Assembly (NCBI RefSeq): GCF_963921235.1
Contig: NC_086097.1
Span: 72,294,001-72,358,000, forward strand
Source: Mobula hypostoma
Taxonomy: Eukaryota
Direction: 5' to 3'
Length of the DNA: 64,000 bases
Shown here: positions 2,546 through 61,222 of the stretch, one piece after another
Position numbering within the stretch: position 1 is the first letter of the stretch
Layout of the letters: every line of letters starts with the position of its first letter
Made by a program: the position numbers and the translations under genes
The notes under the pieces: model-generated
What the model saw: the letters and a program-made list of their open reading frames with translations, nothing else
What the model was told of the DNA's origin: nothing
Databases searched by the model: none

Positions 2546-2922
2546 ATTATTGGAAAAATAGTGTATTGAGATAAAAAAAAAGACATGGTTGAGGGTTTCA
2601 TAAGAACACGAGCAGAGACTAAGGGCAGTTTTGGACAATCGTTCAGATTATCTAGGTGATCGAGGCAATAGCAAGGATTCAAGCTTTGATGCAGATTATA
2701 CAGACACCATTGCCATTTTGCATCATGTAGCACTACCCAACTTTTCCATTCTACCGATAAAAATAATTGGTTTCCTGCAAGGCAGCAACTTGCAGTGCTG
2801 ACTCAACTACCACTCATAGCTTCGAATGAGAGAATGGTGCCAAAGGAAAAGAACAAGAAATACAGTTGCAGCACCTCTCAGTGACTGCAGCCAGAACTAC
2901 AGTGTCAGCACCTGTCAACATT

Positions 2923-3279
2923 AACACGAGGAATTCTGCAGATGCTGGAAATTCAAGCAACACACATCAAAGTTGCTGGTGAATGCAGCAGGCCAGGCAG
3001 CATCTCTAGGAAGAGGTACAGTCGACGTTTCGGGCCGAGACCCTTCGTCAGGACTAACTGAAGGAAGAGCTAGTAAGAGATTTGAAAGTTGGAGGGGGAG
3101 GGGGAGATCCAAAATGATAGGAGAAGACAGGAGGGGGAGGGATGGAACCAAGAGCTGGACAGGTGATTGGCAAAAGGGATATGAGAGGATCATGGGACAG
3201 GAGGCCCAGGGAGAAGGAAAGGGGGGGGGGAACCCAGAGGATGGAAAAGGGGTATATATTTAACATTCAACAGGGGTAT
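2923..3279 (-). mobile_element. Penelope-like element 3' fragment (3'UTR, hammerhead, tail)
   Basis: Near-identical to 7295-7627; flanked by 13-bp direct repeat acctgtcaacatt (2910-2922, 3280-3292). Confidence 0.9.
3019..3060 (-). ncRNA. Minimal type I hammerhead ribozyme (PLE-associated)
   Basis: Reverse complement cagttagtc-CTGACGA-agggtctcggccc-GAAAC-GTC-gactg: catalytic core, stem I agtc/gact, stem II GGGU/GCCC, palindromic ACGU in place of stem III. Confidence 0.85.
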
Positions 3280-3937
3280 ACCTGTCAACATTGCTGGGAC
3301 TTCCTGCCCATCACACCTGAAAATGAGTGCAAGGAGAAATATGTTAGAGATCATCTAAATAATATAAGCTTTATGAGCATTAGATCTCCATTTACAATTC
3401 CAATTGGTGGAAGATATTGAAAATATATTTCTCAAATAAGCATAATTTATTATGCAAGACAATTTAATGTGTTCATTTATGCATTCATAAACAAATCTTT
3501 AGTCCAGAATATGCACTTAAGGGTAAAGTATTCTGAAAGCAATACCATTTCAAAAATACAATCCATAATCTAGGATAATCTTTTTTTGCGCAGGAATTAA
3601 TGTGCTAAATCAAATCTACTGTAAAGATACTCAAGTATCTTTAATACTGGTGAATGAAATGATACTACAAGAGATCTTAAGATAATTTCATTAGTGCCTT
3701 AACAACGTGCAAGGGAAGAGATAGGTATTAACTATCTAAAAGTGTGAAATAATTATCACAAAATAAAGCTGTAGAAGTGGGTGAGCCTAGAAGATAATAA
3801 ATGATCATCAGCAAAGCAGAGATTTAAAACAGGTGACTTTAGCTATTGTGGATACTCAAATTGTCCTCTTCCACCATTCTGTAGATTCTGAAATTGTTCC
3901 TGTGGATCAAAGGGCAGTGAATCTGATTCAGAAGAGA

Positions 3938-4062: not shown

Positions 4063-4724
4063 ATGAATGCATCTGATTACTGTATTCAAGAAAAGAGGGA
4101 GAGAGGAAACCAGTGACTACCAACTTATTTGCCAATGTTAGGGAAAAGGCTGGGATCTAAAATGAAGGATATACACCTTAAAAAAATGACAGGATTGAAC
4201 AAGGTCAGTGTGGACTAATGAGGAGAAAATTAGTTGGAGGTCTTTGAGAATATGACTGGTAGAATAACTAAGAAGGAAACAGTGGTATGATGTTCATATA
4301 TGGGTTTCCAGATGGATTTTGATATTGATAATATTTTGTACAGAAGGCTGGTTGAGAAGGTTAAAACAGGTTCAATTAAGAGTACTGTAATATACTGACA
4401 AACTGAGAATTGGTTACTGAACAGAAAGTAGAGAGCAGTAGAAAATGGATCCTCATCAAGTTTGCAGGCTTTAACAAGTGGGATACCTCATGAATCAGTG
4501 TTTCGGCCCCAGTGATTCACAGTGGTTTGGCCAGCAGAACCAGACGTGCTGATGATAGTGAATCAGGTGGGATTGTGAGTAGAGAACAGAATGTAAGCAG
4601 GATTCAAAGGGATTTGAACAACTCAAGTCAGTTGGTGAGAACATGGTGCAAGATATACAATGTGAAAAATGTGTGGTCACCCAATTTGGTGAACAGAACA
4701 GAAAAGCAGGGTATTGATAGATAG

Positions 4725-4854
4725 ATAAATCCCTTACTCACTCTTCCTTCAGTTAGTCCTGACGAAGGGTCTCGGCCTGAAACGTCGACTGCGCCTCTTC
4801 CTATAGTTGCTGCTTGGCCTGCTGCGTTCACCAGCAACTTTGATGTATGTTGTT
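4725..4854 (+). mobile_element. PLE 3' fragment with hammerhead
   Basis: Matches 12077-12202; 13-bp TSD tattgatagatag (4712-4724, 4855-4867). Confidence 0.9.
4750..4791 (+). ncRNA. Minimal hammerhead ribozyme
   Basis: cagttagtc-CTGACGA-agggtctcggcct-GAAAC-GTC-gactg; predicted cleavage after C4786. Confidence 0.85.
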
Positions 4855-5486
4855 TATTGATAGATAGTGATAGTTTAGGGGGTGTTGCTATTCAAAGACA
4901 CCTTGGTGTGCAGGTACCCAAATCATTGAAGATGAATACAAAAGCCTAGCAAGCACTGGGCAGAACAAATGGGAGAATAATCCTAATTATGAGAGGGCTA
5001 GATTAGGAGTAAATAAGTCCTATAATAACTGGACTTAGTGAGTCTCGATCTGGAGTACTGTGTACAGTTTAGCCCGCTTACCTAGGAGGCAATGTGTTTG
5101 CCCTAGCAGGAATGCAGTAACGATGTACTAGATTGATTCCAGGGATGGCATTTTGCCCTATAAGGAGAGATTGTATAAAATGAAATTGTTTTCCTTAGAC
5201 TTTAGAAGAATGAAAGCAGATCCAGTTGAAACTTCTTACATTGTCTAAAGAGTTTGACAGGTGAGAGACTGGCACATTGCTTTCCCTACCTGAAGAATCT
5301 AGGATCAGGGGGCAAGGTTTGAAAATAAAGCGTAAACGATTTAGGATTAAGGTGCAGAGAAATTTCCACCCTCAGAAGGTGGAGGATCTTTGCAATTCTC
5401 AACTGTGGTTGACTGTCAAAGTCAGTCATTGTACTTATACCAAACAAAGGTTGATAGAATTCTGAACATTGATAAAATTAAGAGAC

Positions 5487-7130: not shown

Positions 7131-7388
7131 GTCTCGAGGTAACTTATCATGCTAGCCCCACAGCCACATTGAATTTCTGGAGAAGAAAACTCCTAAGGAT
7201 CTGCTAGGACCATCACCACAACCCTGCAATGAATAGCGAATGAGGTATTCATGTCCAAAATAAAGCCAAAGAGGCTAAATGAAGTGTATTAAAACAACAG
7301 GAATTCTGCAGATGCTGGAAATTCAAGCAACACACATCAAAGTTGCTGGTGAACACAGCAGGCCAGGAAGCATCTGTAGGAAGAGGTG

Positions 7389-7430
7389 CAGTCGACGTTT
7401 CAGGCCGAGACCCTTCGTCAGGACTAACTG
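7389..7430 (-). ncRNA. Minimal hammerhead ribozyme (left arm)
   Basis: Reverse complement is identical to 4750-4791. Confidence 0.85.
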
Positions 7431-7718
7431 AAGGAAGAGTGAGTAAGGAATTTGAAAGTTGGAGGGGGAGGGGGAGATCCAAATTGATAGGAGAGGACAG
7501 GAGGGGGAGGGATGGAGCCAAGAGCCGGACAGGTGATAGGCAAAAGGGATACGAGAGGATCATGGGACAGGAGGTCCGGGAAGAAAGACAAGGGGGGGGG
7601 GACCCAGAGGATGGGCAAGGGGTATATTCAGAGGGACAGAGGGAGAAAAAGGAGAGTGAGAGAAAGAATGTGTGTATAAAAATAAGTAACAGATGGGGTA
7701 CGAAGGGGTGGTGGGGCA

Positions 7719-10473
7719 TTAGCGGAAGTTAGAGAAGTCGATGTTCATGCCATCAGGTTGGAGGCTACCCAGACGGAATATAAGGTGTTGTTCCTCCAAC
7801 CTGAGTGTGGCTTCATCTTTACAGTAGAGGAGGCCGTGGATGGACATGTCAGAATGGGAATGGGATGTGGAATTAAAATGTGTGGCCACTGGGAGATCCT
7901 GCTTTCTCTGCCGGACAGAGCGTAGATGTTCAGCAAAGCGGTCTCCCAGTCTGCGTCGGGTCTCGCCAATATATTAAAGGCCACATCGGGAGCACCGGAT
8001 GCAGTATATCACCCCAGTCGACTCACAGGTGAAGTGTTGCCTCACCTGGAAGGACTGTTTGGGGCCCTGAATGGTGGTAAGGGAGGAAGTGTAAGGGCAT
8101 GTGTAGCACTTGTTCCGCTTACACGGATAAGTGCCAGGAGGGAGATCAGTGGGGAGGGATGGGGGGGACGAATGGACAAGGGAGTTGTGTAGGGAGCGAT
8201 CCCTGCGGAATGCAGGGGGGGGGAGGGAAAGATGTGCTTAGTGCTGGGATCCCGTTGGAGGTGGCGGAAGTTACGGAGAATAATATGTTGGACCCGGAGG
8301 CTGGTGGGGTGGTAGGTGAGGACCAGGGGAACCCTATTCCTAGTGGGGTGGCGGGAGGATGGAGTGAGAGCAGATGTACGTGAAATGGGGGAGATGTGTT
8401 TAAGAGCAGAGTTGATAGTGGAGGAAGGGAAGCCCCTTTCTTTAAAAAAGGAAGACATCTCCCTCATCCTAGAATGAAAAGCCTCATCCTGAGAGCAGAT
8501 GCGGCGGAGACGGAGGAATTGCGAGAAGGGGATGGCATTTTTGCAAGAGACAGGGTGAGAAGAGGAATAGTCCAGATAGCTGTGAGAGTCAGTAGGCTTA
8601 TAGTAGACATCAGTGGATAAGCTGTCTCCAGAGACAGAGAGAAAGATCTAGAAAGGGGAGGGAGGTGTCGGAGATGGACCAGGTAAACTTAAGGGCAGGG
8701 TGAAAGTTGGAGGCAAAGTTAATAAAGTCAATGAGTTCTGCATGCGTGCAGGAAGCAGCGCCAATGCAGTCATCGATGTAGCGAAGGAAAAGTGGGGGAC
8801 AGATACCAGAATAGGCACGGAACATAGATTGTTCCACAAACCCAACAAAAAGGCAGGCATAGCTCGGACCCATACGGGTGCCCATAGCTACACCTTTAGT
8901 TTGGAGGAAGTGGGAGGAGCCAAAGGAGAAATTATTAAGAGTAAGGAGTAATTCCGCTAGACGGAGCAGAGTGGTGGCAGAGGGGAACTGATTCGGTCTG
9001 GAATCCAAAAAGAAGCGTAGAGCTTTGAGACCTTCCTGATGGGGGATGGAAGTATATAAGGACTGGACATCCATGGTGAAAATAAAGCGGTGGGGGCCAG
9101 GGAACTTAAAATCATCGAAAAGTTTAAGAGCGTGAGAAGTGTCACGAACATAGGTCGGAAGGGATTGAACAAGGGGGGGATAAAACCGTGTCGAGGTATG
9201 CAGAAACGAGTTCGGTGGGGCAGGAGCAAGCTGAGACAATAGGTCGGCCAGGACAGGCAGGTTTGTGGATCTTGGGTAGGAGGTAGAATCGGGAAGTGCG
9301 GGGTGTGGGAACTATAAAGTTGGTAGCAATGGATGGGAGATCCCCTGAGCGGATAAAGTCGGTGATGGTGTGGGAGACATTGGCCTGGTGCTCCTTAGTG
9401 GGGTCACGATCGAGGGGTAAATAAGAGGAGGTATCCGCGAGTTGTCGCTGTGCCTCGGCAAGGTAGAGGTCAGTACGCCAGACTACAACAGCACCCCCCT
9501 TATCAGCGGGTTTAATAATAAGGTTAGGATTAGTGCGCAGGGAGTGGAGAGCAGAGCGTTCCGAAGGAGTGAGGTTGGAATAGGGACAAGGTGCGGTGAA
9601 GTCGAGACGGTTGATGTCCCGTCGGCAGTTAGCAATAAAGAGATCCAGAGCAGGCAGAAGACCAGAGCGGGGTGTCCATGAAGAAGAGGAGGGTTGAAGA
9701 CAGGAGAAGGGGTCATCGGTGGGGGTGGAAGAGTCCTTGCCAAAGAAGTAGGCTCGGAGACGGAGACGGCGGAAGAAAAGTTCCGCATCATGGCGAACAC
9801 GGAACTCGCTGAGGTGTGGGCGACGGGGGACAAACGTGAGGCCCTTACTGAGAACAGAGCGTTCTGCCTCCGACAGTTGAAGGTCGGAGGGGATGGTAAA
9901 GACCCGGCACGGATGAGAGCTGGGATCAGAGGGGGGAGAGGGGAGGCTGGGTGTGTGAATGGAGAGGGAAGGGTTGGGGTGAGAGGAAGATGGAGCCTCC
10001 AAGGGCCCAGGAGCTGACGATGGGATCTGAAGGAGACGGGATTGCAGAGTATTGGTGGTGGAAGGGGAGACGGGAGTCACAACAGCAGCGCATAAAGACC
10101 CGGCCTGGAGCTCAAGGCTGGAGTTGCAGTTGGTGGTTGCGCAATCGCTGTGAAGGTGTCCATGGTCGTTGCTGGAGTCCGGGTTTTGAATATGTCCTGA
10201 GGTGTTGGAGCCTGCGAGATCAATGGCAGATGCCGCAATCTGAAGTTCATGCCTGCTAGTTTCAGGGCCAGCAGGCTCTGGAGTCCGTAGATGTAGGATC
10301 TTGCGATCTTTGCCTAACATGACAAAGTAAAAAAAAAACGGCGATTGCAGGCGTGAATCCGACGGAGGATGAAATAACGGGTAGGACCATTACAGACGGC
10401 GAAGAAAGTGTCCCGAAGGTGTGGAAGGGTCTGGGATAGGGACACCCAGTACCTCCTCATGGCGGAGAGAGTC
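7719..10473 (-). pseudogene. PLE polyprotein (N-terminal domain, RT, Cys linker, GIY-YIG endonuclease); 5'-truncated and frameshifted
   Basis: LSKGLTFVP, IIKPADKGGAVVV, FYLLPKIHK...GRPIVS, MDVQSLYTSIP, KGVAMGT, RYIDD; frameshifts at simple repeats (about 10330, 9175, 8640, 8215); in-frame TAA at 7974-7976; natural stop 7719-7721. Confidence 0.93.
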
Positions 10474-10488
10474 ATTATATACATTATA

Positions 10489-11848
10489 GGATGTCCAGTC
10501 CTTATATACTTCCATCCCCCATCAGGAAGGTCTTAAAGCTCTACGCTTCTTTTTGGATTCCAGATCTAATCAGTTCCCCTCTACCACCACTCTGCTCCGT
10601 CTAGCGGAATTAGTCTTTACTCTTAATAATTTCTCCTTTGGCTCCTCCCACTTCCTCCAAACTAAAGGTGTAGCTATGGGCACCCCTATGGGTCCTAGCT
10701 ATGCCTGCCTTTTTGTTGGGTTTGTGGAACAATCTATGTTCCGTGCCTATTCTGGTATCTGTCCCCCACTTTTCCTTCGCTACATCGATGACTGCATTGG
10801 CGCTGCTTCCTGCACGCATGCAGAACTCGTTGACTTTATTAACTTTGCCTCCAACTTTCACCCTGCCCTCAAGTTTACCTGGTCCATTTCCGACACCTCC
10901 CTCCCCTTTCTAGATCTTTCTGTCTCTGTCTCTGGAGACAGCTTATCCACTGATGTCTACTATAAGCCTACTGACTCTCACAGCTATCTGGACTATTCCT
11001 CTTCTCACCCCGTCTCTTGCAAAAATGCCATCCCCTTCTCGCAATTCCTCCATCTCCGCCGCATCTGCTCTCAGGATGAGGCTTTTCATTCTAGGACGAG
11101 GGAGATGTCTTCCTTTTTTAAAGAAAGGGGCTTCCCTTCCTCCACTATCAACTCTGCTCTTAAACGCATCTCCCCCATTTCACGTACATCTGCTCTCACT
11201 CCATCCTCCCGCCACCCCACTAGGAATAGGGTTCCCCTGGTCCTCACCTACCACCCCACCAGCCTCCGGGTCCAACATATTATTCTCCGTAACTTCCGCC
11301 ACATCCAACGGGATCCCACCACTAAGCACATCTTTCCCTCCCCCCCTCTCTCTGCATTCCACAGGGATCGCTCCCTACACAACTCCCTTGTCCATTCGTC
11401 CCCCCCATCCCTCCCCACTGATCTCCCTCCTGGCACTTATCCGTGTAAGCGGAACAAGTGCTACACATGCCCTTACACTTCCTCCCTTACCACCATTCAG
11501 GGCCCCAAACAATCCTTCCAGGTGAGGCAACACTTCACCTGTGAGTCGACTGGGGTGATATACTGCATCAGGTGCTCCCGATGTGGCCTTTAATATATTG
11601 GCGAGACCCGACGCAGACTGGGAGACCGCTTTGCTGAACATCTACGCTCTATCTGGCAGAGAAAGCAGGATCTCCCAGTGGCCACACATTTTAATTCCAC
11701 ATCCCATTCCCATTCTGACATGTCCATCCACGGCCTCCTCTACTGTAAAGATGAAGCCACACTCAGGTTGGAGGAACAACACCTTATATTCCATCTGGGT
11801 AGCCTCCAACCTGATGGCATGAACATCGACTTCTCTAACTTCCACTAA
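10489..11848 (+). pseudogene. PLE RT C-terminal half plus GIY-YIG endonuclease; 5'-truncated, one in-frame stop
   Basis: KGVAMGT, RYIDD, FLDL, YYKPTD, CKRNKCYTC...FTCESTGVIYCIRCSRCGL*YIGETRRRLGDRFAEH...GMNIDFSNFH*; the Cys-rich linker is typical of the Neptune clade. Confidence 0.93.
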
Positions 11849-12098
11849 GGCCCCACCTCCCCCTCGTACCCCATCTGTTACTCATTTTTATGCACACATT
11901 CTTTCTCTCACTCTTTTTCTCCCTCTGTCCCTCTGAATATACCTCTTTCCCATCCTCTGGGTCCCCCCCCACTTCTTGTCTTTCTTCCCGGACCTCCTGT
12001 CCCATGATCCTCTCATATCCCCTTTTGCCTATCACCTGTCCAGCTCTTGGCTCTATCCCTCCCCCTCCAACTTTCAAATCCCTTACTCACTCTTCCTT

Positions 12099-12140
12099 CA
12101 GTTAGTCCTGACGAAGGGTCTCGGCCTGAAATGTCAACTG
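12099..12140 (+). ncRNA. Hammerhead ribozyme (right arm), CpG-decayed
   Basis: CTGACGA...GAAATGTCaactg; two CpG-type transitions relative to GAAACGTCgactg. Confidence 0.7.
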
Positions 12141-12239
12141 CACCTCTTCCTACAGATGCTGCCTGGCCTGTTGCGTTCACCAGCAACTTTGATGTGTATT
12201 GTTAAATGAAGTGTATTTATCTCTTTGGGTCAACTTCTG

Positions 12240-13760
12240 TAATGTTTTTGTACTGTCCAGCCTCTCCTCATAGCTAATAGTTTTTCATCCAGGCCATATC
12301 CTGGTGAACTTCTTCAGCATCCTCCTCAAAGTCTACAAATCCTTCCTGTAACGTACGAACAGAATTGTATGTAATACTCCAAAAGTGACCCAGTGAATAT
12401 TCAACACAGTTGCAATTTGATTTCCTGAATGTTATCCTCAGCACTCTGACTGATGAAATCAAACTTACCAACCACCTTCTTGCCACCATCTACTTGTATT
12501 TCCACTTTCAGAAATCTATGGACTTGTATCTCAACATACCTCTCACATCAGTGCCCCTAAGGGTGCTGTTATTTCATATATACATTTTCTTCTTGTGCTT
12601 GACCTCTCAATATGCACCCCACATTTGTCCAGATTAAACTCCATCTGCCATTTCTCTACCTATACTTACAGATGGTCTATGTCCTGCAGAATCCTTTGAC
12701 AACCTTCCTCACCATCCCCAACTCCCATCAATTTTTGTGCCAACTGCACAATTCTTACTCAGACCAACTGCACCTTCCCCACATAATTCCAAACTGCCAA
12801 TTCCCTAATAACTCTATGCTTTTCCAGATGCATTTGAATCCTATCCCTGAGAATCTTCTCCAATAACTATACTGTGTAATTTGGATAAAATGTTATATTA
12901 CTACATCATAAATTGAAGAAAATCATTGGCCTCAGGCTTCCAGTCAGAGTAACACCCTTCCACCACTACCCTCTGTCTTCAGTGGCCAAGTAAATTTGAA
13001 TCCAATCTTCCAAATCTCCATGAATCCCATGAGCCTTGATCAGCCCCTCATGTATACAACATTCAAGTCCTTACCCTCATCAATCATCTTTGCACCTTAA
13101 AAGTTCAATCATGTTTGCAAGAAAAAGCCTTCCCCTCACAAATCTATGCTGCCTATTTCCTAATAAATCTATGCTTTTCCAGATGTGATTAGAAGCTATC
13201 CCTAAGAACCTTCTCGAATTGTTTGCCTACCACTGATACAAGAGTGTATAGATTTGATGTAGGGGTGATGTAAGCCTGTAATTTCCAGATTTGTCTCCAC
13301 TATCCTTCTTAAGGAGAGCATACCATTGACTATTTGCCGGTCCTCTGGGATTTCACCTGTGGCTAAAGAAGGTACAAAGATCTCTGGCAAGGTCCCAGCA
13401 ATCACTTCTCTTCCCTCTCCTGTGAATTTGGAATAGATCCCATCAGGCTCTGGGGACCTATCCAGCATAATGTTCCTCAAGAGCCCTAACACTTCCTCTT
13501 CTTTGCCTAATATTCTGGAAGAATATTAGTGTTATTCTTCCAGATCTCACAGTCCTCCATGTCCTTCTCATTAGTGAATACCAATGCAAAGTACTTGTTT
13601 GGTATCTCACCCACGTCTTCTAGTTCCTAGCATAAATACCCTCTTTTGTCTTTGAGTGGTTCTAACCTGTTCCCTTTTGTTTTCAATGTATGTATAAAAT
13701 GCATTGGATTCTCTTTAATTCTACTAGCCAAGGATATTTCATGGTCTCTTTTAGCTAGAA
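12240..13760 (-). mobile_element. Decayed CR1 LINE ORF2 fragments
   Basis: Reverse ORF 13202-13492 DRSPEPDGIY...SLATGEIPED is the CR1 SPGPDG region; downstream EYSLGHFWS resembles LEYCVQFWS. Confidence 0.7.
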
Positions 13761-16304
13761 ATTTCTGTTACTTCTAATTTTCCAATATTTGTTAGCATGT
13801 GAAATACTATCTTGATATCTGAGCCAAAATCACCCCCAATCTCTCCCAAAACCTATACTTCTGCCTGAAATGAAATGCAGGACTTGTGTCTGTTAAAGTG
13901 TAGTGAAACAATGCACAACATTTTTGCACTCTGTGTTCTAGACATATTGTCAAATTTACATCTTGTTGTGCCCAAAAACCGTTAGCAATTTTTGAGAGTC
14001 AAGCCCCTGGTGTGTACACTTCTATTTTACAAGCCAATCTAGTTAAATCTAATGACTAGGAGTAATATGTTTTACACATCCATGACAACCTTTATTGTTA
14101 ATACATAGCTTGTTAACTCAAGCAGTGCAATGCGCACATTAATTTTGCATCAGCTTTTCTGTACATCTGCATAAAAGTCATCATTTTGCTGCAGATAATA
14201 TTGACATACATTTTTTTCCTTTCCTCTGTGTGTGATACAAATAGGGAACTTTGTTATTCCAGATTCACCAGAGAATACCAAGCCATGTACGAATATTTAT
14301 GTTTTGTCAAAGTGAAATAAAATCTATCAGATACAGATCTTCAAGCTGAACACAGAGTAAACATTACCCTGACAAGAAATGTAATCTCTTGAATGTATGC
14401 AGAGTTTAGTAATAGTAATACCAGGAGGAATATGTAATACATCAAATTGTTAAATACATGAAGTTGCTAAAACATTAATCTCTGATAAACAGTCATAGTT
14501 TCATCTGACACATTTTGATTTCATAATAATTATGACAGATTAATTTGTATAAAAACTGATGTATAGTGTTATTCATCACACATGAAAAACCTATTTGTGT
14601 TATAATTTTTTTAATGCTATTGTTTTTTTTAGCAGAGTCGACCTATACATCCTTGTAGCTTTGCAAACTTTGCAAGCCATAAATAGATTTATTTCACTAA
14701 AGCTGGACTTTCATGTTCTTTCTACATTTTTCTTTACTTTTTTCAATCAGGTCAGAAGATCAAGCCCAAACTATTAGAACAAGTAAAAATATGAACATTT
14801 CTTGCTTATAACTTAATTTTGTCATGTATTCTATGGAAACTTAGAAATGAAAGCTTGTGTTATTTTTATGAAAATGGACTGCCTCCTCCCTTCATTTCCT
14901 GCATGTTAGAATTACATATTCCAGCAGCACCTCACAGATTGGCTGCTAAGTGCTCCAATCATCTTAATATTCAGCTTCTTAATAGCTGTCACCATCTACT
15001 TTAATGAGGTCCATTAAATTGCAAAAACCACTCAATATGGTTTAGTGTGAGAGCGCTGGAAATAGTAGGAAATGTTGATTGCCAAAAAATGAATAAATTA
15101 TAATTAGAATGAAGATCATGTGGCTTGCCATTGCCACTGAGCCTTGTCGCCAATAGAAACGGACTCTGCTCCATCTTGCTGAGAATCACAGACTGATTTT
15201 CTTTCGATATTTGAAAATACTAACTGTACAAGAAGACAGTTAAAATTGCTGCTGGTAAGCCCGCTACCTTTGTCATGGTATTTTCACAGTGTCAATAGCC
15301 TCTATAGTATTGCTAAGGCAAATATCAGCAATGGAGCTACCAATAAAACAAGCTTCTGTGAAGGAAATCAACTCTCAACTAACCACAGTGTCTCGTACAA
15401 AAAAAATCAGAAGCTGTGTCACCTGCTGCACTCAGCTTTAAAATAAACCTGAAACAAATATACAACTACTATTTCCTTTTAAATTAATAAATCCATACAT
15501 AAAATTACAATATTAGTTTACTATTTACAAATTTGAAATTCACAGATATACATACACTGTTAGAAAATGTAATCAGTTATAATTTCACTCAGTTACTGTG
15601 TCTCCTCATTAAAAAAGCTCTTCACATCTGAGGTATAATTAACAGCCCTGAAGTATCCAAACCAGGAACTGATGTGATCCATTGGAATTTTCTCCAGACA
15701 AGCTTCAAACACATCTGGCCTTATATTCTGTTCTGCAATTGTCATGCTCAGCCTGCCTTCTTCAGCATTCATAACTATGAACATAATGGTTCAAAATGAG
15801 CTGATGCTTGGCCTGCAGGTCCATAGAGAACAGCATCCAGACACAAAAGCACAGAAAGCATTCAGAATTGCACACATACACGCTCATTCCTTTAGACTGA
15901 ATCCAGGAGCATTCCATTAGCTGCTGAGCCAAGTGGATAGATATAATGTTCATCCAGCCAGCTCCTGTGGAGCTAGCATGGTTGGCCACCTTGGGGCACG
16001 GGTTAGGATCAATGCATTCTGGTTTATCAGCAGTCCTAATATCAACTGTTGGGGAAATTCAGTGTACACTTCCCTTCAGCTGTGTGAAGTGCAAAGCTGG
16101 GACAAACGCTCCAAAGATCAGACCATGTTAATAGTGAGAGGAGCACCAATCATACGTCATGCTTTAATGACCTACTGCAGAACTGGCTGTCTCTTTGTGG
16201 AATACACCAGACAGTCTTTGCTTGAGTTCTAATTGTGACTGCCTTCGTTTAATTCTATTTCCAGTGCATCGGTGCTGTTTCCTGCGCTCTTACAAAATTC
16301 AAAG

Positions 16305-16510
16305 ATTTTGTTACCATTGCTGTCAATTTCAACCCTACTCTCACCTTAAAATGGTCCATCTCTGATTCTTCATTTCCCTTCTGAATCTCTCCAGCTCCAT
16401 CTCAGGCTAATTATAAGCAACAATTACATGCCCTCAGAGTCCCACAGCTAGCTGGCCTGTACTTCATCCCTCTCTATCCCCTGCAGAGCTCCATTTCATT
16501 CTCCTAGTCT
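16305..16510 (+). mobile_element. Highly decayed PLE RT fragment
   Basis: aatttcaaccctactctcaccttaaaatggtccatctctgattc resembles 10853-10900 (NFHPALKFTWSISD). Confidence 0.5.
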
Positions 16511-17836
16511 TGCTTTGGTGATAAATTGTTGTTGAAGTTATATGCCGACGGCTAGACAGATGGAACACAAGCACAGGAACGTGAATGGTGTGTAATGCAA
16601 GACTATGAGAAATTACAATAAACACCAACATAATCTTAAGGAATCTCAGCTCATCGTCCATTTGGGCATGTTGCAATCTTCTGAAGTCAATATTAAGGGC
16701 AAGAGCCTCGGGCAACTCACTTTCTTTAATCATGTCAGTACCGGCCAGTCTGCTGCAGGTCACCCATCTGTAATAACAGGTCAGTTCTTTCCTTCTCCAT
16801 TGATATGGCCTGAGCTGCTCAGATTCCTCACAGCTTTGCAAAACACCATTCAATATCCTTTGTCTGTGTTCCAGCTCCCCAGCTGTTGCCAGTAGCCTAA
16901 CTACCAGACAACCTCATCAAGTGGCAGCTTTATCACCCAAGAAGTCCTGGCCTCAGCCTGTCAAAGATATTCCTTTGGTTTTAACCATCCTCATTACAAC
17001 TTAAGCATATTGTTTTCTTTCTTTCTTGTCTGATAAGGGTCCTTCACTAAAGTGCTCATCTTCCAACAGATGCTACTTGACCTGTTGTTTTCAGATTGTG
17101 AATTAGTTCTCAGCAGATGACAATAAACAAGTTTTTAAACCAGTGCTGAAATATATCAGAATTATTGAAGTTTCATTTACAATACAAAATAGCAATAAGT
17201 CCTCAATGAAAATTTGCCATATCAGTCATGATACACTCAAAGCAATAGGTTCAGTATTTGTATGTGTTAGCTTTTAGTAAACTACCTAGCTGTACCCACT
17301 GCACTGCACCTTCCCTGTGGCCTTACAAAATTCTCCTTTAAAGGAATATATCCTATTGCTTTTAGAAGTCATGACCGAATTAGCAGCAACTAACCATCTG
17401 TGTGGTGATAATATCATTCTAGATCATAACCATCCACAGCTAAAAATAAAATTCTCAATTCCACAGCCTCACTCATTTCTTTTTTGCCAATTGTTCATCA
17501 GTAGTGTCATCGGATTACTGACCCTGCAAGTGAAAATTCTTTCTCTTGATTTACTTCTGAACACCTCTATTAAATCTCCCCCTAAGCTTCTCTGCCTTAA
17601 AGATAAATTCCAGCCACAAATCTTTCCACATAACTGAAGTGCCTCATCCTTGGTATCATTCTAATAAACTATTTTTTTGTACTTTCTCCAAAGACTTGAC
17701 ATCAAATGTGCCCAGAATTTAACAAATTGCTCCAGCTGTGGTTCTAACCAGTTATTTAAAAATATTTGACGTAATGTCACTGTGTTTGTATTACTTGTTT
17801 CTATTTATAAATACAAGGATCACCTTCAAATATCTG

Positions 17837-17931
17837 CAACACACATATAAGTTGCTGGTGAACGCAGCAGGCCAGGCAGCATCTCTAGGAAGAGGTGCAG
17901 TCGACGTTTCAGGCCGAGACCCTTCGTCAGG
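17837..17931 (-). mobile_element. Minimal PLE insertion (hammerhead plus tail only)
   Basis: 15-bp TSD accttcaaatatctg (17822-17836, 17932-17946); 5' end falls within hammerhead stem I. Confidence 0.9.
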
Positions 17932-17933
17932 AC
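17898..17933 (-). ncRNA. Minimal hammerhead ribozyme
   Basis: Reverse complement gtc-CTGACGA-agggtctcggcct-GAAAC-GTC-gactg. Confidence 0.8.
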
Positions 17934-18476
17934 CTTCAAATATCTGTTCATGTGAAATCATGTTTGTCTAGCTATGAACCCTTTTAAAATGACCTACCCT
18001 TTTAAAATTGAATATTTAATTTATGTTGCCTTTGTGGAATATTGGTGCCCAGCCTAAATGAATGGCTGCTATGTGAGACAGAATTAACCCTGGAAAAGCA
18101 GATACAGATATGTGAAGCTGTGGAGCTATCTGCAGCCGGGCTGGAATTGTTGGCTAGCCAACAAGAGGAAGTAAGTACATGTGGTGAAACACAGGCCAAA
18201 AGACAGAATAGAGAAACCACAGCCAAAATGACTTGTGTGCTTCAAATAACATGCGCGACAACATGAGCAGCTGAAGAGGAAGTTTGCTGCGGTTGGGAAT
18301 AGTGCGAATGACAGGGATGATTTCTAAAAGCAATGCATGATGAATTGGGCATAAAGATCATGGAATGGGCAAGATGAGTCAAGCAGGGCAGAGACGGGAT
18401 GGGATGCACAGTTCAGCTGAACATAATGTACTAATACCTTTGGAGAGAGCACCCAGTCAAAGTTTCATTGCCAAGA

Positions 18477-22340: not shown

Positions 22341-24320
22341 TGATAAGTCCTCACACGATATCTATTATTTTGTTCCCTTCAGCAAGAAAAGTTTGTGTGC
22401 AACGCTGATGGTGTACCGCTATGTTAGGTGGGTGAACAAAAAGAAAATGGCCATAGGAAGTGTGTGGTGAGCGAAGAATCTGAGGGGAGAGAACGAAAAC
22501 AGGAAAACTAAATAAAACATATAAGAGAGGGGGAGGGGGGGATAAGACTAATTAACTTTTCTGGAAAGAGATTGTGTTTAAAAATGGCAACAATGTTTGG
22601 AAGTATGTGTCAGTATTTCAGAACAACAGAACAATGGAGAAAGATTTAAAAGTTTTGCACTGGTAAACCAAATTTCAGGTGATATTCATGTCCAACTCTT
22701 CTGACCGTGATGGGTGGAAAAACTTTTAATTTATTACACCGTCTAGTGCAACCAGCTAAGCCTGGTGATGAGCATCATGAGGTCTTAGCTAAAGTCTTAA
22801 AGGACCACTATTCACTAAACCTTTGATTATTGCTGAGATTTTTAGGTTTCATAAAAGGAATCGAGAGGAAGGTGAGTTTATTTTACAGTTTGTGGTTGAA
22901 CTGAAGCAATTGTCTGATCACTGTGATTTTGGACTGTCGCTGAATGACACATGACATGATAGACTCGCATGTGGTCTGCATAGTGAGGCAATTCAGAAAC
23001 ATTTGCTTACAGAAGACAGACTAACATTACAGAAGGCAATTGAGATTAGTACATCTATGGAGATGTCACCTAAAGAAGAATAGCAGTTAAGTGTATCTTC
23101 CCAAGTTCATAAAGTTTCTACTGACTTTAAGAATAAGGCATGTATTGGCAATCATTGTTAACTTTGTGGAAAAACTGGGCATTCAGCAAATGAATGCTGG
23201 GATAAAGATTTAAATTGTCGAAGCTGTGGCAAAAAGGACATATTAAAACTATTTGTAAAAGTAAAAAGACACTGTCAACCAAAAACACTGCAATTAAGAA
23301 AATTGACTTTTGGAAAAAAAAGGAAACGTGAACAGGATGGAGCATACTGAGGACAGATTGAGTGATTTTCACTCCATTGTTGAAGAAGCTTTTTATGCTT
23401 TATTTATTTCCATATACAAAGATGGCTACCAGGTGACCCCATGGTTGGATGTGGGCCACGGTGCGGTAGCAGATAGACATGGATGTTGCAGTATTGCTGG
23501 TGTCAGAGACGGTTTACCAGGAGAAATTTCAGCATCTCACCCCCAGAAGGGGCAAGGTCGACTTTAAAGACATACATTGGTGGGATTGTCCCAGTGAGGG
23601 GAGTAGTACATGTTACAGTGGCAATTAATGAACAGAGAAAGAAACCTCCACTGCACATTGTTAAAGGTAGTTACCCAGTGCTTTTGGGATGTTAGTGGGT
23701 GGAGCAGCTCAAACGCAACTTGCATTAGGTACACTTGATTGGTGGGAGCACTGGTCTACAAGATGTATTGAAAAAACTTGCAGAAGTATTCATTGTGGAA
23801 CTGGGCAGTATGAAAAGAATCCCTATTAAGTGGGCTGCTAATCCAACACAACACACAAATGCCTGAAAGTAAAACCTATTCCATGTGTCCTGAAACAAAA
23901 GATAGAGGCTGAATTGGAAAGACTGGCCCAGAGTTGGTATTGGAACCAGTGTGTGTAAGTAAATGGGCAACTCCAGTGGTTCCTGTCCTAAAAAGGGATG
24001 GGTCTTTAAGGGTCTGTGGAGACTTCAGGGTAACCATTAACCAGACTCTTAGGGCTGAACAATACCCTCTTGTCCTCATTAATGACCTTGTTTTTGAAGA
24101 ATTGGCTAGAGGACAGACACTTAGCAAGACTGACTTGTGTCAAGTACTGCATGTGGAGCCAGGGTCCCAGGATAGGTTGACCATAGTGACTCACAAAGTA
24201 ACATTCAGATGCTGAAGGCTTCCATTTGCCATTAACTTGGCTCCTGCACTTCTCAGCAAGCAATGGACCAGATCCTGAGCAGGTTTACAGGAGTGCAATG
24301 TTACTTGGATGACTTACCCA

Positions 24321-24929
24321 TGTATGGGGTCTTTTTTTTTGTATGTTAAATTTTAAATGGCTTCTTTGTTATGTTATACTGGGGAATGCTTCTCTGTTAT
24401 GTTAAATGCTGAGAAAGTCTCTAGCTAGACAGTTGTTTGGGTTAATATAGATAGCAGAGTGCTATTAGCCAATGGGTGTTCATGTATCATTCTTTTTCGA
24501 ATGATAATGCTGTCTTATATGACTGGGGACGGAGATTTTGGCGGGGAGTCAGAGGAGAGACGGAGAGGATGGCGGACATGCGGAAAGGCTCCGGTCAATA
24601 ACTTCAGGAGGTCTCGAGCCGTGAGTCGACAGGATCCGGGTGGTCACCAGGAATTGACTGAGCTCCAACGGTTGCGCGCGAAGAACTTGGACTGTGATAA
24701 GTCTTGGCACATTTTTTTCACTACTTCCTTTTCTGTATCGAATTTATATTAATGTCATAGACTTAGTAATATCTATAAAGTGCACTTGGTAAAATGTACT
24801 GGGTGTGCTGGCTGATGACTGATGTTTGGGCTTGATTCGGGCGACAACCGACTCCGTGGGAAGCGTTGAGGCAGGTGCTGGGTGGGATTTCCCCTAGACA
24901 TATACAAGCCAATATAACAGAACATTACA
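24321..24929. mobile_element. Solo LTR of a second LTR retroelement inserted just after YLDD
   Basis: TG...CA termini; 4-bp TSD ccca (24317-24320, 24930-24933); removal restores YLDDLPITGKNE. Confidence 0.8.
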
Positions 24930-24978
24930 CCCATCACTGGGAAAAATGAGTGTGAGCACCTACAAAGCCTGGATGCTA

Positions 24979-25029
24979 AACACAAAATAATCTGCAGATG
25001 CTGGGATCAAAGTTCCTCCAGCACGTTGT
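24979..25029. mobile_element. 51-bp two-tailed PLE micro-insertion
   Basis: 14-bp TSD aagcctggatgcta (24965-24978, 25030-25043); minus tail aacacaaaataatctgcagatgctgg plus plus-strand piece gttcctccagcacgttg. Confidence 0.8.
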
Positions 25030-26879
25030 AAGCCTGGATGCTACACTGCAAAGACTCAAGGAATATGGGCTAAGAGTCTGGAAGGGTAAGTGTGAGTTCT
25101 TTTAATATTCATTTGAATATTTGGACCTTGTGACAGACAACTCAGGACTTCACAAGGTACCATCGAAGGTGCAGGCAATCGTGGAGGCTCCATTACCACA
25201 GAAAGTAAGTCAATTGAGATCTTTCTTAGGATTACTAACATACTATGCGAAATTTATTCCTAACCTAGCTAGCATGCTGAAACCACTTCACGAGCTTTTA
25301 AATAAATCAACACACTGGCACTGGACAGATCGCTGTGAAAAGGATTTTAAAAAGGCCTGAACAGCTTTGTCACTTTCTGCAGCACTCACACACTTCAGCC
25401 TATCATTGCCCACACAGCTAGCCTGCAGTACATTACCCTTTGGGGTGGGGATTGTTATCTCACACATCATACCATCGGGCGAAGAGCATCCAATTGCCTT
25501 CACATCAAGGACATTAAGCAAGGCAAAAAGCCACTATGCCCAGGTTGAGTAGGAAGCCCTCACAATTGTCTTTGGAGATAAGAAATTCCATCAATTTCTC
25601 TTTGTCAACGATTTACACAACTGACCGATCATCACCCCTTGATGTCAATTTCTGTTCCACATACGGGCATTCCTTCCCTGGCTGCTAGCCAAATGCAACA
25701 TTGGGCTATGTTAAAAGTAACTATGGCGCAAGTTCAGAAGCACACACGTACTGACCCTGTTCTATCTAAAGTAGTGGACATGGTAACTCATGAATGGAAA
25801 GGAGAATTTAAACCTTACCAGGCTTGATGGAAGGAGCTCACAGTCTAAGCTGGATGTTCACTATGGGGCTACTGTGTTGAGATTCCTCCACCATTCAGAA
25901 AGCAAGTGCTTGATGAGCTACATGCAGGACACTGTGGTGTGGTATACATGAAAGAAAACATATGCAGCTTCTTATGGTGGCCAGGAGTGTACGTAACCAT
26001 TGAAGGGAAGACCAAAGCATGTCCACGTTGTCAGCAAGTGAGAAATGTTTCTCAGTTTGCTCCTTTGGATCCATGTGATGGCCTGAAGAACCATGGCAAA
26101 GGATTCACATAGATTCTGCAGGACCTGCAGAAGGCCGCATCTTCTTGGTCGTAGTAAACTCACACAGCAAATGGCCCAAGGTTACCATCATGAAGAACAC
26201 CACATCTGAAAAATGTATTGAGGAGCTACATTCCATCTTTAGTCATTTTGGGTCTCCTCAATAAATTGTAAGTGACAATGGCCCACAGCTCCTGTCTGAA
26301 GAGTTCAAGGCATTTATGGAAGCAAATGGTATTCAACGCATCAAGTCAGCGCCATTCGTACAAACATCGAAACAAGTCCTTAAGACTTCAGTGGGAATAG
26401 GATCCCTCAACCAACATCTTAGTATTTTCTTGCTGACATACCATAACGCACCTCACGCCACCAACAAAATGGCTCCAGCCACTACACTGATGAGAAGACT
26501 GCTTTGTACATGGTTTGACCTGCTTAGACCCCCAAACACAAAACAAGTTGAATGAAATGAACAGAAAACCCAAGCAGAGAGACATGCCAAAGCGATGTAC
26601 AGAAGTTTCACAGCAGGAGAGAGAGTACTTACCCAGAACTACATCTCTGGAACCAAGTGGATACCTGTGACGGTGGAGGCACAAACTGGCCCTGTGTCAT
26701 ACACAGAAGAAGCTAGTAACCACAACATCTGGAGAAGGCATGTTGACCAGCTGTTGCCCACTTCTGAGGCTACAGAAAACCAATACAAACCTACCATTCC
26801 AGATCCAGTTGTAGGAATGGGACGGTATTCTGAGACAGCGACTACAGGACCTCCATTAAGATCAAATAACATGGCAATT

Positions 26880-27430
26880 GTTCCTCTGATTGGTGAAGCC
26901 AGATGGGTGGGAAAGACAAAGGGTTAGAGAAGAAGGATTCTAATAGGAGAGGAGAGTGGACCATTATTGAAAGGGAAGGAAGAGGGGACCCAAGGGGAAG
27001 TTATAGGCTGGTGAGAAGAAGTAAAAGGCTAGAATGGGGAGTAGAAGAAGAGGGGAGGGGAGGGAAAAAATTACCAGAAGGAGAAATCGATATTCATGCC
27101 ATCAGGTTGGAGGCTCCCAGACAGAACATAAGGTATTGCTCCTCCTCCCTGAGGGTGGTTTCATCTTGGTACAAGAGGAAGCCATGACCGACAGGTTGGA
27201 ACAAGAATGGGAATCCAAATTAAAATGCTTGGCCTCTTGAAAGTTCTGATTCTGGCGAATGGCCCGGAGGAGCTCGACGAAGCGGTCCCTCAACTTACAA
27301 CGGGTCTCACCAATGTAGAGGAGACTGCAGGGGTAGAGCTGGACATAATAGACAACCCAGCAGATTCACAGGTGAAGTGTTGTCTCACCTGGAACGAGTG
27401 TTTGGGGCCGTAAGTGGAGGTGAGGGATAC
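26880..27430 (-). mobile_element. PLE GIY-YIG and 3'UTR fragment inside the Gypsy 3' region
   Basis: Reverse strand encodes FQVRQHFTCES...CSLLYIGET...RDRFVELLR...HFN. Confidence 0.8.
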
Positions 27431-27434
27431 TGTA

Positions 27435-27633
27435 TATTATGTATTCATGTATATTTTGACCTTTACGGGTTGCTGTCCAGCTTCCTTGTACGTTACATAC
27501 GGTACGCAATGTGAGAAGACATTCTGAGCAGATTTTCAAGCAAAATAAACAGCTGCCTGCTTGTTCATCACCTCTCCATCTCTCGTGTGTGTTATTCACT
27601 GCCACCCAGCTTCCCAGAACCACAAACATAACA
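27435..27633 (+). repeat. Gypsy 3' LTR
   Basis: tattatg...tgtatattttgac...aaaataaa...cacctctcca...gccaccc.gcttccca...cataaca, collinear with the 5' LTR. Confidence 0.8.
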
Positions 27634-28575: not shown

Positions 28576-29477
28576 CTAACACACACAAAGTGCTGGAGGA
28601 ATTTATCAGGTCTGGCTGCATCTATGGAAATGAATAACTTTTTGACATTTTGAGCCAAGACCCTTCATCAAAGGGAGGGGAAAGAAGACAAGTAGGTGAG
28701 AGAGTGGGAAGGAGTACAACCTAGAAGGAGATAGGTGAAGCCAGTTGGGTGGGGGAGGGTAGAATGGATTAAGAAGCTGGGAGATGATAGATGGACATGA
28801 TAAAGAGCTAGGGAAGAAGGAATCTGGTCGGAGAGTAGAGTGGACCATGGAAAAAATGGAAGGATGCACAAATGGGAGGTGACTGGTAGGTGAGGAGAAG
28901 TGAAGAGGTAAGAGAGAGGCAAGAGTGGGGAATTGAAGAAGAGTGAAGGTGAAGGGGGAAAATATCAGAAGTTTGAGAAATTGATGCCCATGCCATCAGG
29001 ATGGAGGCTACTCAGACAGAATATGAGGTGTTGCTCCTCCAACCAGAGAGCTTCCTTATCATGGCGGTAGAGCCGGCCATGGACTGACATGTTGAATGGG
29101 GATTGGAATGAAAGTGGATGTATCGGCATGTCAGAATGGATAGGAGACTCTCCTCTCTGATCAGATTCCTTCTTTTCCAGCCCCTTACCTTTTCTACCTA
29201 TCATCTCCAAGTATTTTACTTCATTCCCCCTCCCCCACCCACCTGGCTTCACCAATCACATTCTAACTTGTACTTCTTCCACTCCTTCCCCCAGCCCCTC
29301 CCCCCACCACTGCATCTTCTAATTCGGTCTTCTTCATCCTTCCTTCCCTGTCCTGATGCACCAAAATGTTGACTGTTTATTCATTTTCATAGATGCTTCC
29401 CAACCTGTTGAGCTCCCCCAGTATTTTGTGTGTGTTGCTTTGGCTTTCCGGCATCTGCAGAATCTCTTGTGTGTGTT
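28576..29477. mobile_element. Older two-armed PLE insertion
   Basis: Minus arm to about 29140 (LEEQHLIF...PDGMGINFSNF), plus arm 29147-29477; 12-bp TSD atctgatgcatt (28564-28575, 29478-29489). Confidence 0.85.
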
Positions 29478-29959: not shown

Positions 29960-32900
29960 AGGTGAATAGGAAGTGAGTGCAGAGCACCCTGTGGCCATTC
30001 CCCTCAATAATGAGTATATTGTTTTGGATACTGTTGTGGGGGTGATATCCCAGGGGAAAGCCACAGAGACCAGGTTACTGGCAGTGAGCATAGGTCTGTG
30101 GTTCAGAAGGGAAAGATGGGGAAGAGGGGAACGGCAGTGATAGGGGACTCAACAGTCAGAGGAACAGACAGGAAATTCTGTCAAAGTGAACGGGACATCC
30201 GGATGGTATGTTGCTTCCTAGGTGCCAGGGTCAGGGACATCTTGAATCGCATCCACAGCATTTTGGAGAGAGAGGGAGAGCAGCCAGAATTCTTAGTATA
30301 TATTGGCATCAATGACGTAGGAAGGAAAAGCAATGAGGTCCTGAAGAGAGAATTTAAAGAGCCAGGCAGAAAGCTGAGAATCAGGGCTGAACAGCTACCT
30401 GTGCCACGCGCCAGTGAGGGTAGAAACAAGATGATTTGGCAGATAAATGAGTGGCTGAGAAGCTGGTACAGGGGTCAGGTCTTCAGGTTCATGGATCATT
30501 GGATCATTGATCATGGATCATGGATCACGGATCTTCTGGGGTGGGGGGGCCGTGGGTATGACCTGTTCGAAAGCTATGGGTCGCACCTGAACCTGAGGGA
30601 ACCAATATTCTCACAGGCAGGGGGTTGGGAACCAGAGTGAAGGGACTCAGGATAGGACAGATTGTAAAAAAAAACAAAGATAGTGTGCAGTCAGCCAGCC
30701 TGTCAGGAAGGGCAGGCAGATTATAGGACAAAATTGCAGCCAGCAGGGTGAGTATCAGTACATTAGGGATGCAGAATCAGAAAGGGTAGCAAATACAGAA
30801 CTCAAAATGTTATATCCCAGTGCACGGAGTATAAGAAATAAGGTGGATGATCTTATTGTACTTTTACAGATTATCAGGAGTGATGTTGAGGCCATCACTG
30901 AATTGTCGCTGAAGGATGGTTGTAGTTGGGAGTTGAATATCCAAGGTTACACATGATACTGGAGGAATAGGAAGGCAGGCAGAGGAGTGGCATAGCTCTG
31001 CCAGTAAAGAATGACATCAAATCAGTAGATAGATGTGACATAGGATCAGAAGATGTTGAATCCTTGTGGGTTGAGTTAAGGAACTGTAAGGATAAAAGGA
31101 CCCTGATGGCAGTTATATACAGGCCCCCAAACAGTAGCTGGGATGTGGACTACAGGTTACAATGGGGAATAGAAAAGGCTGTAAAAAGGGCAATGTTATG
31201 ATAGTCATGGGAGATTTTAACATTAAGGTAGATTGGAAAAATTAGGTTGGTAATGGACCCCAAGTGAGTGAATATGTTGAATGCCTACAAGATGATTTTT
31301 TGAAGCAGTTTGTCATTGAACCTACTAGAGGATCATCTATACTGGATTGGGCGTTATATAGTGAACCCAAGGCGATTAGGGAGCTTAAGGTAAAGGAACA
31401 CTAAGGAGTCAGTGATCACAATGTGATTGAGTTCAACTTGAGAATTTGATAGGGAGAAAGTAAAGTCTGATGTAATAGTATTTCAGCTGGAAAAAGGAAA
31501 TTACAGTGGTATGAGAGAGGAGCTGGCCAAAGTAAATTGGAAGGAGATGCTGCCAAGGATGACAGAACAGCAGCAATGGCTTTAGTTTCTGGGAAGAAAT
31601 GAGGAAGGTGCAGGATAGATGTATTCCAAAAACAAAGTACTGAAATGGCAAAATAGTACAACCGTGGCTGACAAAGGAAGTCAAAGCTAATGTACAAGCA
31701 AAAAAGAGGGTGTACAACAAAGCAAAAATTAATGGGAAGATAGAGGATTGGGAAGCTTTTAAAAACCTACAGAAAGCAACTAAAAGGATCATTAGGAGAG
31801 AAAAGATAAAACATGAAAGCAAGCTAGCAAACACTATCAGAAAATGCCTTTTCAAGTATATAAAAAATTAAAAGAGAAATGAGAGTGGATATAGGACCGT
31901 TAAAAAACGAGGCTGGAGAAATAATAATGCGGACAAGCAGATGGCTGATGAACTAAATGATTATTTTTCAACAGACTTCACTGTGGAAGACACTAGAGTG
32001 TGCCAAAGTTGAAATGTGTCGGGGATGAGAAGTGAGTGCAGTTACTATTACAAGAGAGAAGGTGCTCAAAAAGTTAAAAGAATTTAAAGTACATAAGTCA
32101 CCCGGACCAGATGAACTCCCTAGGATTCTGAAAGAGGTAGCAGTAGAGATTGTGGATCCATTAGTAATGATCTTTCAAGAGTCATTGGATTCTGGCATTG
32201 TGCCAGAGAACTGGAAAATTGCAAATGTCACTCCACTCTTTAAGAAAGGAAGGAGGCAGCAGAAAGAAAATTATAAACCAAATATCCTGACCTCAATGAT
32301 TGAGAAGATGCTGGAGTCAATCGTTAAGGATGAGGTTATAGAGTACTTGGTGTCACAGGACCAGATAGGACAAAGTCAGCATGGTTTCCTTAAGGGAAAG
32401 TCTTGCCTGATGAACCTGTTGGGATTCTTTGAGGAGAGTACGAGTTGGATAGATAAAGGGGACGCAGTGGATGTTGTATATTTGGATTTTCAGAAGTCCT
32501 TTGACAAGGTGCCACACATGAAGCAAGTTAAGAGCCCATGATATCACAGGAAAGTTACTGGCATGGTTAGAACATTGGCTGCTAGGTAGAAGGCAGTGAA
32601 TGGGAAGAAAAGGATCCTTTTCTGGCTGGCTGCCAGTGACTAGTGGTGATCTGCAGGGGTCAGTGTTCGGACTGCTTCTTTTTATGCTGTATATCAATGA
32701 TTTATATAATGGAAAAGATGGCTCTGTTGCCAAGTTTGCAGATGATACGAAGATTGGTGAAGGGGTAGGTAGTGTTGAGGAAACAGGAAGGCTGCAGAAG
32801 GACTTAGACAGATTAGGAGAATGAAGAAAAAAGTGGCAAATGAAATACAATGTTGGTCATGCCTTTCAATAGAAGAAATAAATTTTCTGACTATTTTCTA

Positions 32901-37574: not shown

Positions 37575-38095
37575 TTCTCAGAGAGGCCATTGGTTCATGT
37601 CATTTCCTTGGAGAGGCCACTGATTCAATCCATATCCCTCTAAGGGGGCCGTTGGTTCATATCATTCCCTTGGAGCGGGTGCTTGTTCGTGTTGCTTCCT
37701 TTGGAGAGGCTGCTGGTTCATGTTGCTGCCCTTGGAGAGGCTACTGGATCATGTCACCTCCCTCTGAGGGGCCGCTGGTTCATGTTGCTGCCCTTGGAGA
37801 GGCCACTGGATCATGTCACCTCCCTCTGAGGGGCCTCTGGTTCATGTTGCTGCCTTTGGAGAGGCCATTGGATCATGTCACTGAACTCAGAGAGGCCACT
37901 AGCTTGTATGGCTTCCCTCTGAGGGGCTGCTGGTTTGTGTCGTCTTCCTCGAAGAGGCCACTGGTTTGTGTCACTTCCCTTCAGAGGGGTTGCTGGTTCA
38001 TGTCATATCCCATTGGAGAGACTGCTTGTTTGTGTCTCTTCCCCTCGGAGGGGCTACTGGTTTGTGTCTCTTACCCTCAGAGGGGCCACTGGGTC
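37575..38095. repeat. Minisatellite, about 30-31 bp unit with a dimeric higher-order pattern
   Basis: Alternating units like cccttggagaggccactggatcatgtcacct and ccctctgaggggccgctggttcatgttgctg; roughly 17 units. Confidence 0.85.
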
Positions 38096-38382: not shown

Positions 38383-38479
38383 TTCACCCTTATCATATCA
38401 GTGTACTAATACTTAGACTTGATATGACTTTAGAGCAAGTTTTGTTCATATTTACTGAACAAAACATCATACATTTCAA

Positions 38480-61073: not shown

Positions 61074-61222
61074 CCATGCAGGGAATGGCTTTGAAGACTA
61101 TGGGGGGTGGGGGGGGGCGGAATCTATCCTGAGTCTTGTACATTAAAGTACAAATCAGCAGAATGGGGTAGCCCACATCTGAAGTCTCATTCAGCTGAAG
61201 CAAATCGAACTAAACTTTGGGA

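Follow-up and report, generated by a model that had tools for sequence, protein, structure and literature searches.

Within a window of 64,000 nucleotides (nt) of the Mobula hypostoma genome (NCBI RefSeq assembly GCF_963921235.1, contig NC_086097.1, positions 72,294,001 to 72,358,000; "the window" means this whole stretch, and coordinates count from its first letter) we find an insertion at 7291-12202 that is very probably the remains of one dead Penelope-like insertion, built head to head via double priming and with no host function indicated. Judged by its sequence, the element belongs to a high-copy ray family of Penelope-like retrotransposons that carry an endonuclease. The insertion consists of a minus-strand copy, a filler and an inverted copy, and one pair of target-site duplications (TSDs) flanks the whole unit. 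The main parts of the insertion, including the regions of reverse transcriptase (RT) that they carry, are the following.

7276..7290, plus strand: left copy of the TSD, an exact 15-nt word, with a chance control
7291..10472, minus strand: longer Penelope-like copy, 3.18 kb, frame broken
7291..7326, minus strand: 3' extension (tail) of 36 nt, at the left end only; the right end is without it
9073..10488, minus strand: spacer of 1416 nt, made up of the filler and, from the longer copy, the N-terminal region and the opening part of the RT
10473..10488, no strand assigned: filler at the head-to-head joint, about 16 nt, A/T-rich, its left boundary presumptive
10489..12202, plus strand: inverted copy, more strongly truncated, 1.71 kb, with the second half of the RT, the linker, the endonuclease and a tail-less 3' end
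12203..12217, plus strand: right copy of the TSD, an exact 15-nt word, seen in contigs 23 and 30

A preliminary description of this stretch had proposed near-identical reverse-complement arms lying under a single TSD, and both proposals hold when measured. By blastn, 7328-9072 aligns with 12201-10489 at 94.6% over 1755 columns, gaps counted. The duplicated word, TAAATGAAGTGTATT, stands at 7276-7290 and at 12203-12217, immediately outside the two ends, and occurs nowhere else in the window; as a control for chance, a word of at least 15 nt was common to only 3 of 19868 random pairs of 51-nt stretches. The target site was A/T-rich (12 of the 15 nt are A or T). The arms had also been said to enclose about 1.4 kb of unique sequence. 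The length is right, and the uniqueness applies only inside the insertion: elsewhere the same region is ordinary family sequence, found in many contigs.

How alike the two arms were when they were laid down can be judged from how they differ now, a comparison that the preliminary description had called for. In a global alignment of 7332-9072 with 10489-12197, 42 of 1699 columns (2.5%) are substitutions and there are 6 gaps, a 39-nt deletion in the right arm being the largest. We compared contigs with the stretch 9073-13572, which contains the right arm only, so that left-private changes at the DNA level are outside the reach of this comparison and the joint it displays between 9075 and 10489 reflects nothing more than the absence of the left arm. 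Among 40 of its 178 variant rows, 12 fall in the right arm, and 10 of these are private to it. At rows 11592 and 11656 the left and right arms agree with each other, against 99.6% and 98.7%, respectively, of the contig depth in run X2 of an organism that we call A; the letter at 11592 makes a stop in the endonuclease motif, common to both arms. When the proteins are set beside 11 ray relatives, sites clear of gaps give 5 changes private to the left arm, 8 private to the right one and 3 that are unassignable. Private changes occur throughout the arms, at 2 to 8 per 200 nt, and show no visible subfamily pattern. All this fits a history in which the arms would have been identical, or nearly so, at insertion and would then have decayed separately.

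The broken frames and the changes that separate or unite the arms involve three further features.

7737..8213, minus strand: the left copy's zinc-finger-like linker (C-x4-C-x2-C) and its GIY-YIG endonuclease region, with a stop at 7974-7976 inside the motif
11591..11593, plus strand: stop inside the GIY-YIG motif of the right copy, the same stop as in the left copy and rare in the family
12056..12057, plus strand: site of the 39-nt deletion, between two 12-nt direct repeats

Both arms had been described as truncated at the 5' end. This is clear for the right copy, whose 5' end falls inside the RT and which matches an 899-position profile of 40 relatives from about position 445 to 898, in one reading frame with a single stop. 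It is weaker for the left copy: four pieces cover profile positions 163-898, and the first codons match positions 92-142, in the expected order and with a weak score (independent E-value, iE, 0.054), so that by this match the copy would lack about 90 5' codons. Frameshifts, at least three in number (near 9176, 8640 and 8217), and one stop interrupt the left frame, and a fourth frameshift is probable at the A run 10329-10338. As their reading frames stand, both copies are dead, the left by its frameshifts and stop and the right by the same stop.

The preliminary description took the whole unit for the product of one integration event. The single duplication, an empty-site-like contig in a related organism and the two rare letters common to the arms all argue for this. 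The contig in question (contig 30, 739 nt, from an organism that we call B) fits the compared stretch, 9073-13572, only from 12203 onward and carries 302 non-element letters before that point; it is the sole contig listed over position 12240 in the organism B run, of which 84 in 100 was covered. Since 12203 is the first base of the right duplication, such a fit points to an empty site in organism B. On the occupied side, contig 23 of organism A (run X2, which may be the window's source sample) runs from 12174 into the flank without a difference. All three head-to-head insertions examined in the window (7291-12202, 38480-38644 and 61223-61379) have one tail and one duplication, although a rule cannot be established on three cases.

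To interpret how two copies could arise under one duplication, we draw on the anole Poseidon protein, which cleaves and extends each of the two target strands and has a pair of start sites, one at either boundary of the tail (PMC11167929). In the proposed sequence, the element protein would nick both strands of the A/T-rich target, 15 nt apart, and each nick would prime reverse transcription on element RNA, as the anole element suggests in vitro. One complementary DNA (cDNA) would begin at the downstream start site and so include the tail, and the other 36 nt further in. The cDNAs would stop after 3.2 and 1.7 kb, and their ends would be joined head to head with a short filler, the joining and the order of events being our conjecture. 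Fill-in at the staggered nicks would then produce the TSD, and the arms, alike at insertion, would afterwards decay separately.

The stop common to both arms suggests a more specific version, in which there was one template RNA without a working endonuclease; if the stop was already in the template, it follows that the RNA moved in trans. We offer tentatively, as a possibility that is short of an even chance, that both arms came from one endonuclease-dead RNA, moved in trans by the dimer of another copy and primed at its two start sites from each of the target nicks, with the same 1.7 kb copied twice by strand displacement and the ends joined with partly templated filler. Movement in trans has been reported for rotifer Penelope elements (PMC3846280), and gene conversion between the arms is a possible alternative source of the shared stop. 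If this version were true, the locus would document, in a vertebrate and in vivo, a double-primed, trans-acting Penelope integration, and many such pairs would make the question of one or two templates countable: a nonsense change common to both arms, counted over many insertions, would tell one RNA from two and would show whether dead RNAs are moved in trans.

Several observations weigh against a single double-primed integration and deserve to be set out together. The arms differ more (42/1699, 2.5%) than the flanks do between organisms A and B (17/1399, 1.2%; Fisher p 0.012), and slightly different templates may therefore have been used. Once 14 CpG-context changes are removed the arms stand at 28/1699 (1.6%) and the difference from the flanks has p 0.37; the CpG label denotes sequence context only, and at 11011 the family letter shows it to be wrong. 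The right arm may be more changed than the left (21 against 10 among the C/T and G/A pairs, p 0.07). The shared letters at 11592 and 11656, 64 nt apart, together with the residues at 11549 and 11567, which are common to both arms and differ from the Mobula copies, would fit one 110-nt tract. The empty site in organism B is putative; contig 23 reaches only 29 letters into the element at the right end, below the bar of 31; and the head-to-head joint is bridged by no contig among those listed. Finally, double priming has not been demonstrated in vivo in the Penelope papers cited here. We also compared the 3' 100-340 nt of the copies in the window, where the arms differ from each other by 6.0% and other pairs by 5.8-14.5%, stretches that include ragged ends and are too short to rank.

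Two of these points, an arm divergence slightly greater than the age limit from organism B would suggest and four shared sites (11549, 11567, 11592 and 11656) that a single 110-nt conversion tract could explain, are what recommends the idea that the arms derive from two templates from different source copies, or from successive insertions at one site, with gene conversion between the arms afterwards. We consider it very unlikely: successive insertions would leave a second duplication, of which the joint has none, and the private changes, found along the arms with no visible subfamily pattern, speak against different sources. A single integration could also have produced its inverted copy by self-priming on the antisense template and not from both target nicks, as has been proposed for head-to-head copies in Adineta vaga (PMC3846280), and this would likewise yield identical arms. 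That model relies on palindromes at the joint, and here there is filler with a 1416-nt spacer, while the right arm stops just where tail-less solo copies end, as a target-primed start predicts; on these grounds we hold self-priming to be very unlikely. An inversion of the L1 twin-priming type was considered and rejected, the arm overlap of 1.7 kb standing against an L1 median of 12 bp in the cases with overlap (PMC12016303).

The joint itself bears on these readings. It contains neither a palindrome nor a second TSD. An 8-nt word of the filler recurs at 10502-10509, 27 nt away in the right arm, a length that 2.0% of 20000 shuffles reach; the repeat is a hint that end-joining may have been templated.

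An assembly fold-back, which the preliminary description named as what would overturn its account, is almost certainly not the explanation: no listed contig bridges the joint and inverted structures are said to trouble short-read assemblies (PMC8557442), but 42 substitutions and 6 gaps separate the arms, each of which has private changes, the tail is at one end only, a duplication with distinct flanks is impossible from a fold-back, and contig 23 passes from 12174 into the flank free of differences.

Double priming at one nicked site is our preferred reading, and the arrangement it explains is the typical, published insertion pattern of Penelope-like elements; as a Penelope insertion the locus is ordinary. 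An inverted, 5'-truncated copy at the 5' end together with a one-sided tail of 30-40 bp is frequent (PMC8557442), and head-to-head is the most frequently observed inverted arrangement, pictured under one duplication (PMC3846280). Like Pen2a_Av of Adineta vaga (PMC3846280) and the scheme in Fig. 2 of PMC8557442, the present insertion has RT followed by GIY-YIG, an inverted 5'-truncated copy at the 5' end, a head-to-head joint, a tail of the 30-40 bp type at one end and one duplication around the unit. It departs from Pen2a_Av in the length of the inverted copy (1.7 kb here, 181 bp there), and from both Pen2a_Av and the scheme in that its main copy, too, is truncated and lacks a direct 5' repeat, that the joint is filler where theirs is a palindrome, and that the duplication is 15 nt where theirs is 8-10. 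Our search of the literature, by titles and abstract openings and with most subscription papers outside it, found nothing on such pairs in rays.

Comparison with better-studied priming systems gives a similar mixture. Poseidon of Anolis carolinensis, studied in vitro, shares two discrete 3' ends one tail apart and A/T-rich targets, and extension from both target strands of the Poseidon type would give the present structure (PMC11167929). The present element differs from Poseidon in belonging, by its zinc-finger-like linker, to another clade, and the in vitro work is not known to have reconstituted complete Poseidon insertions (PMC11167929). Twin priming by L1 is alike in that both target strands prime cDNA, a 5' part is inverted and the duplication is about 13-15 nt; there, however, the cDNAs copy different parts of a single RNA, whereas here both start from the 3' end and overlap over the whole shorter arm (PMC12016303). 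As a single locus, this is a clean, long-armed example and one data point on Penelope-like integration, a process that is still unsettled.

The preliminary description went furthest in supposing that the locus, transcribed in either direction, would form a long double-stranded RNA hairpin able to silence the family. The capacity to pair is real on paper: an RNA reading through both arms could form about 1.5 kb of duplex, with 26 uninterrupted runs of at least 21 pairs that total 1490 nt, the longest of 150. The special claim to control the family falls, this being one of several such pairs. Rearranged Drosophila Penelope copies likewise have long inverted arms that could pair in a read-through RNA, and in transgenic Drosophila melanogaster (PMC3681739) small interfering RNAs (siRNAs) match their inverted parts. 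Those copies are transcribed and their siRNAs were sequenced, whereas at the present locus, in data dominated by other copies of the family, we saw no sign of transcription, siRNA, editing, silencing or instability, and the Drosophila siRNAs were judged poor silencers that gave no efficient silencing (PMC3681739, PMC3136932). A working source of hairpin RNA, restraining the family through siRNA or ADAR editing, is highly unlikely here. No promoter-bearing 5' repeat lies ahead of the left or the right copy; a Pfam search of the 244 open frames of at least 62 amino acids (aa) outside the element, from which short exons could escape, gave no host coding domain and only transposon domains, in 5 frames; the window holds two further, smaller head-to-head pairs; and the arms have simply decayed, nothing suggesting that they were kept similar.

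Two runs that we presume to be RNA were also compared with 9073-13572. Their contigs cover the element by way of other family copies and are uninformative on this copy; zero cover at 12373-12522 and a joint unbridged among the pieces listed have no bearing either way. A>G places number 39 and 39 in the DNA runs and 34 and 37 in the presumed RNA runs, which is no excess and is not copy-specific. If pairs of this kind fed small-RNA control in rays, the Drosophila observation would extend to vertebrates, although nothing here points there. With regard to stability, inverted-repeat instability is lowered by spacer length and divergence, except in long single-stranded DNA (PMC10164571), and this pair has persisted long enough for 2.5% divergence.

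The ribozyme that the hairpin was supposed to include is represented by two motifs.

7384..7429, minus strand: minimal hammerhead-like motif of the left copy, from a pattern scan, with core boxes and palindromic helix III intact
12100..12145, plus strand: hammerhead-like motif of the right arm, from a pattern scan, with two further changes, at 12132 and 12136

The core boxes were found in both arms by a pattern that we made ourselves, with features from PMC4209133. The scan found no ribozyme motif upstream of the left copy, an Rfam search with E up to 1 gave no hammerhead match in either arm, and RNA fold prediction did not reproduce the ribozyme fold for these motifs. The left motif has U at what we take to be the position of the conserved C11.1, and the changes at 12132 and 12136 presumably disrupt, on our assignment of the helices, the palindrome of helix III and one pair of helix I.

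The open frames of the insertion encode RT, the C-x4-C-x2-C linker, present in both arms, and the GIY-YIG endonuclease region, and the copies are collinear with relatives of 889-958 aa. The pieces in the window score under the curated cut-off for RVT_1, while the long relatives carry RVT_1 and, in part, GIY-YIG. With RT plus GIY-YIG at the C terminus, an inverted partial second copy, a one-end tail of the 30-40 bp type and a short A/T-rich TSD, the insertion has the features of Penelope-like elements. Among named proteins the nearest come from two rays, Mobula hypostoma (89-95%) and Hypanus sabinus (71-88%). A zinc-finger-like CX2-5CxxC linker between RT and endonuclease is the hallmark of the Neptune and Nematis clades (PMC8557442), and by that definition the C-x4-C-x2-C linker would place the element with one or the other. 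It also shares with them the position of the linker before GIY-YIG and the C-terminal endonuclease, and its putative hammerhead motif near the 3' end would match the minimal hammerhead motif of these clades (PMC8557442). Between the 3' bin and the 5'-most full bin, summed contig depth in run X2, which is not a copy number, drops about 68-fold, in line with frequent truncation. Three public ray proteins (P0121, P0122 and P0221) bear host-gene names (chitinase domain-containing protein 1, a kinase-domain protein and nicotinamide riboside kinase 1) and consist largely of the element's frame; they are probably gene-model contamination or exonised copies.

Other copies of this and related families are scattered through the window. 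A small head-to-head insertion of the same family lies at 38466-38658, with a 14-nt duplication and a tail on its shorter arm only, and one of a related family at 61209-61393, also with a 14-nt duplication and a tail on one arm; the hairpin at 61219-61323 within the latter has weak Rfam matches, far under the cut-offs, to two microRNA families. Solo truncated copies of the same family are found at 2910-3292, 4712-4867 and 17822-17946, with duplications of 13, 13 and 15 nt, respectively. The first has a tail, the other two end at the tail-less position, and 17822-17946 starts a few bases before the ribozyme core. Older, decayed relatives, recognised by DNA identity of about 70-78% or by weak protein matches, occupy 16244-16487, 26902-27436, 28581-29470 and 59883-60460. 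Beyond these, the window contains the remains of a long terminal repeat (LTR) retrotransposon at 23162-26109 (separate frames match a zinc knuckle, RNase H and an integrase zinc-binding region), a Tc1/mariner-type transposase fragment on the minus strand at 51076-51480, an RT fragment at 32029-32538 whose adjoining DNA is about 71% like 1444-2556, and, at 37577-38095, a degenerate tandem array whose period is about 31 nt.

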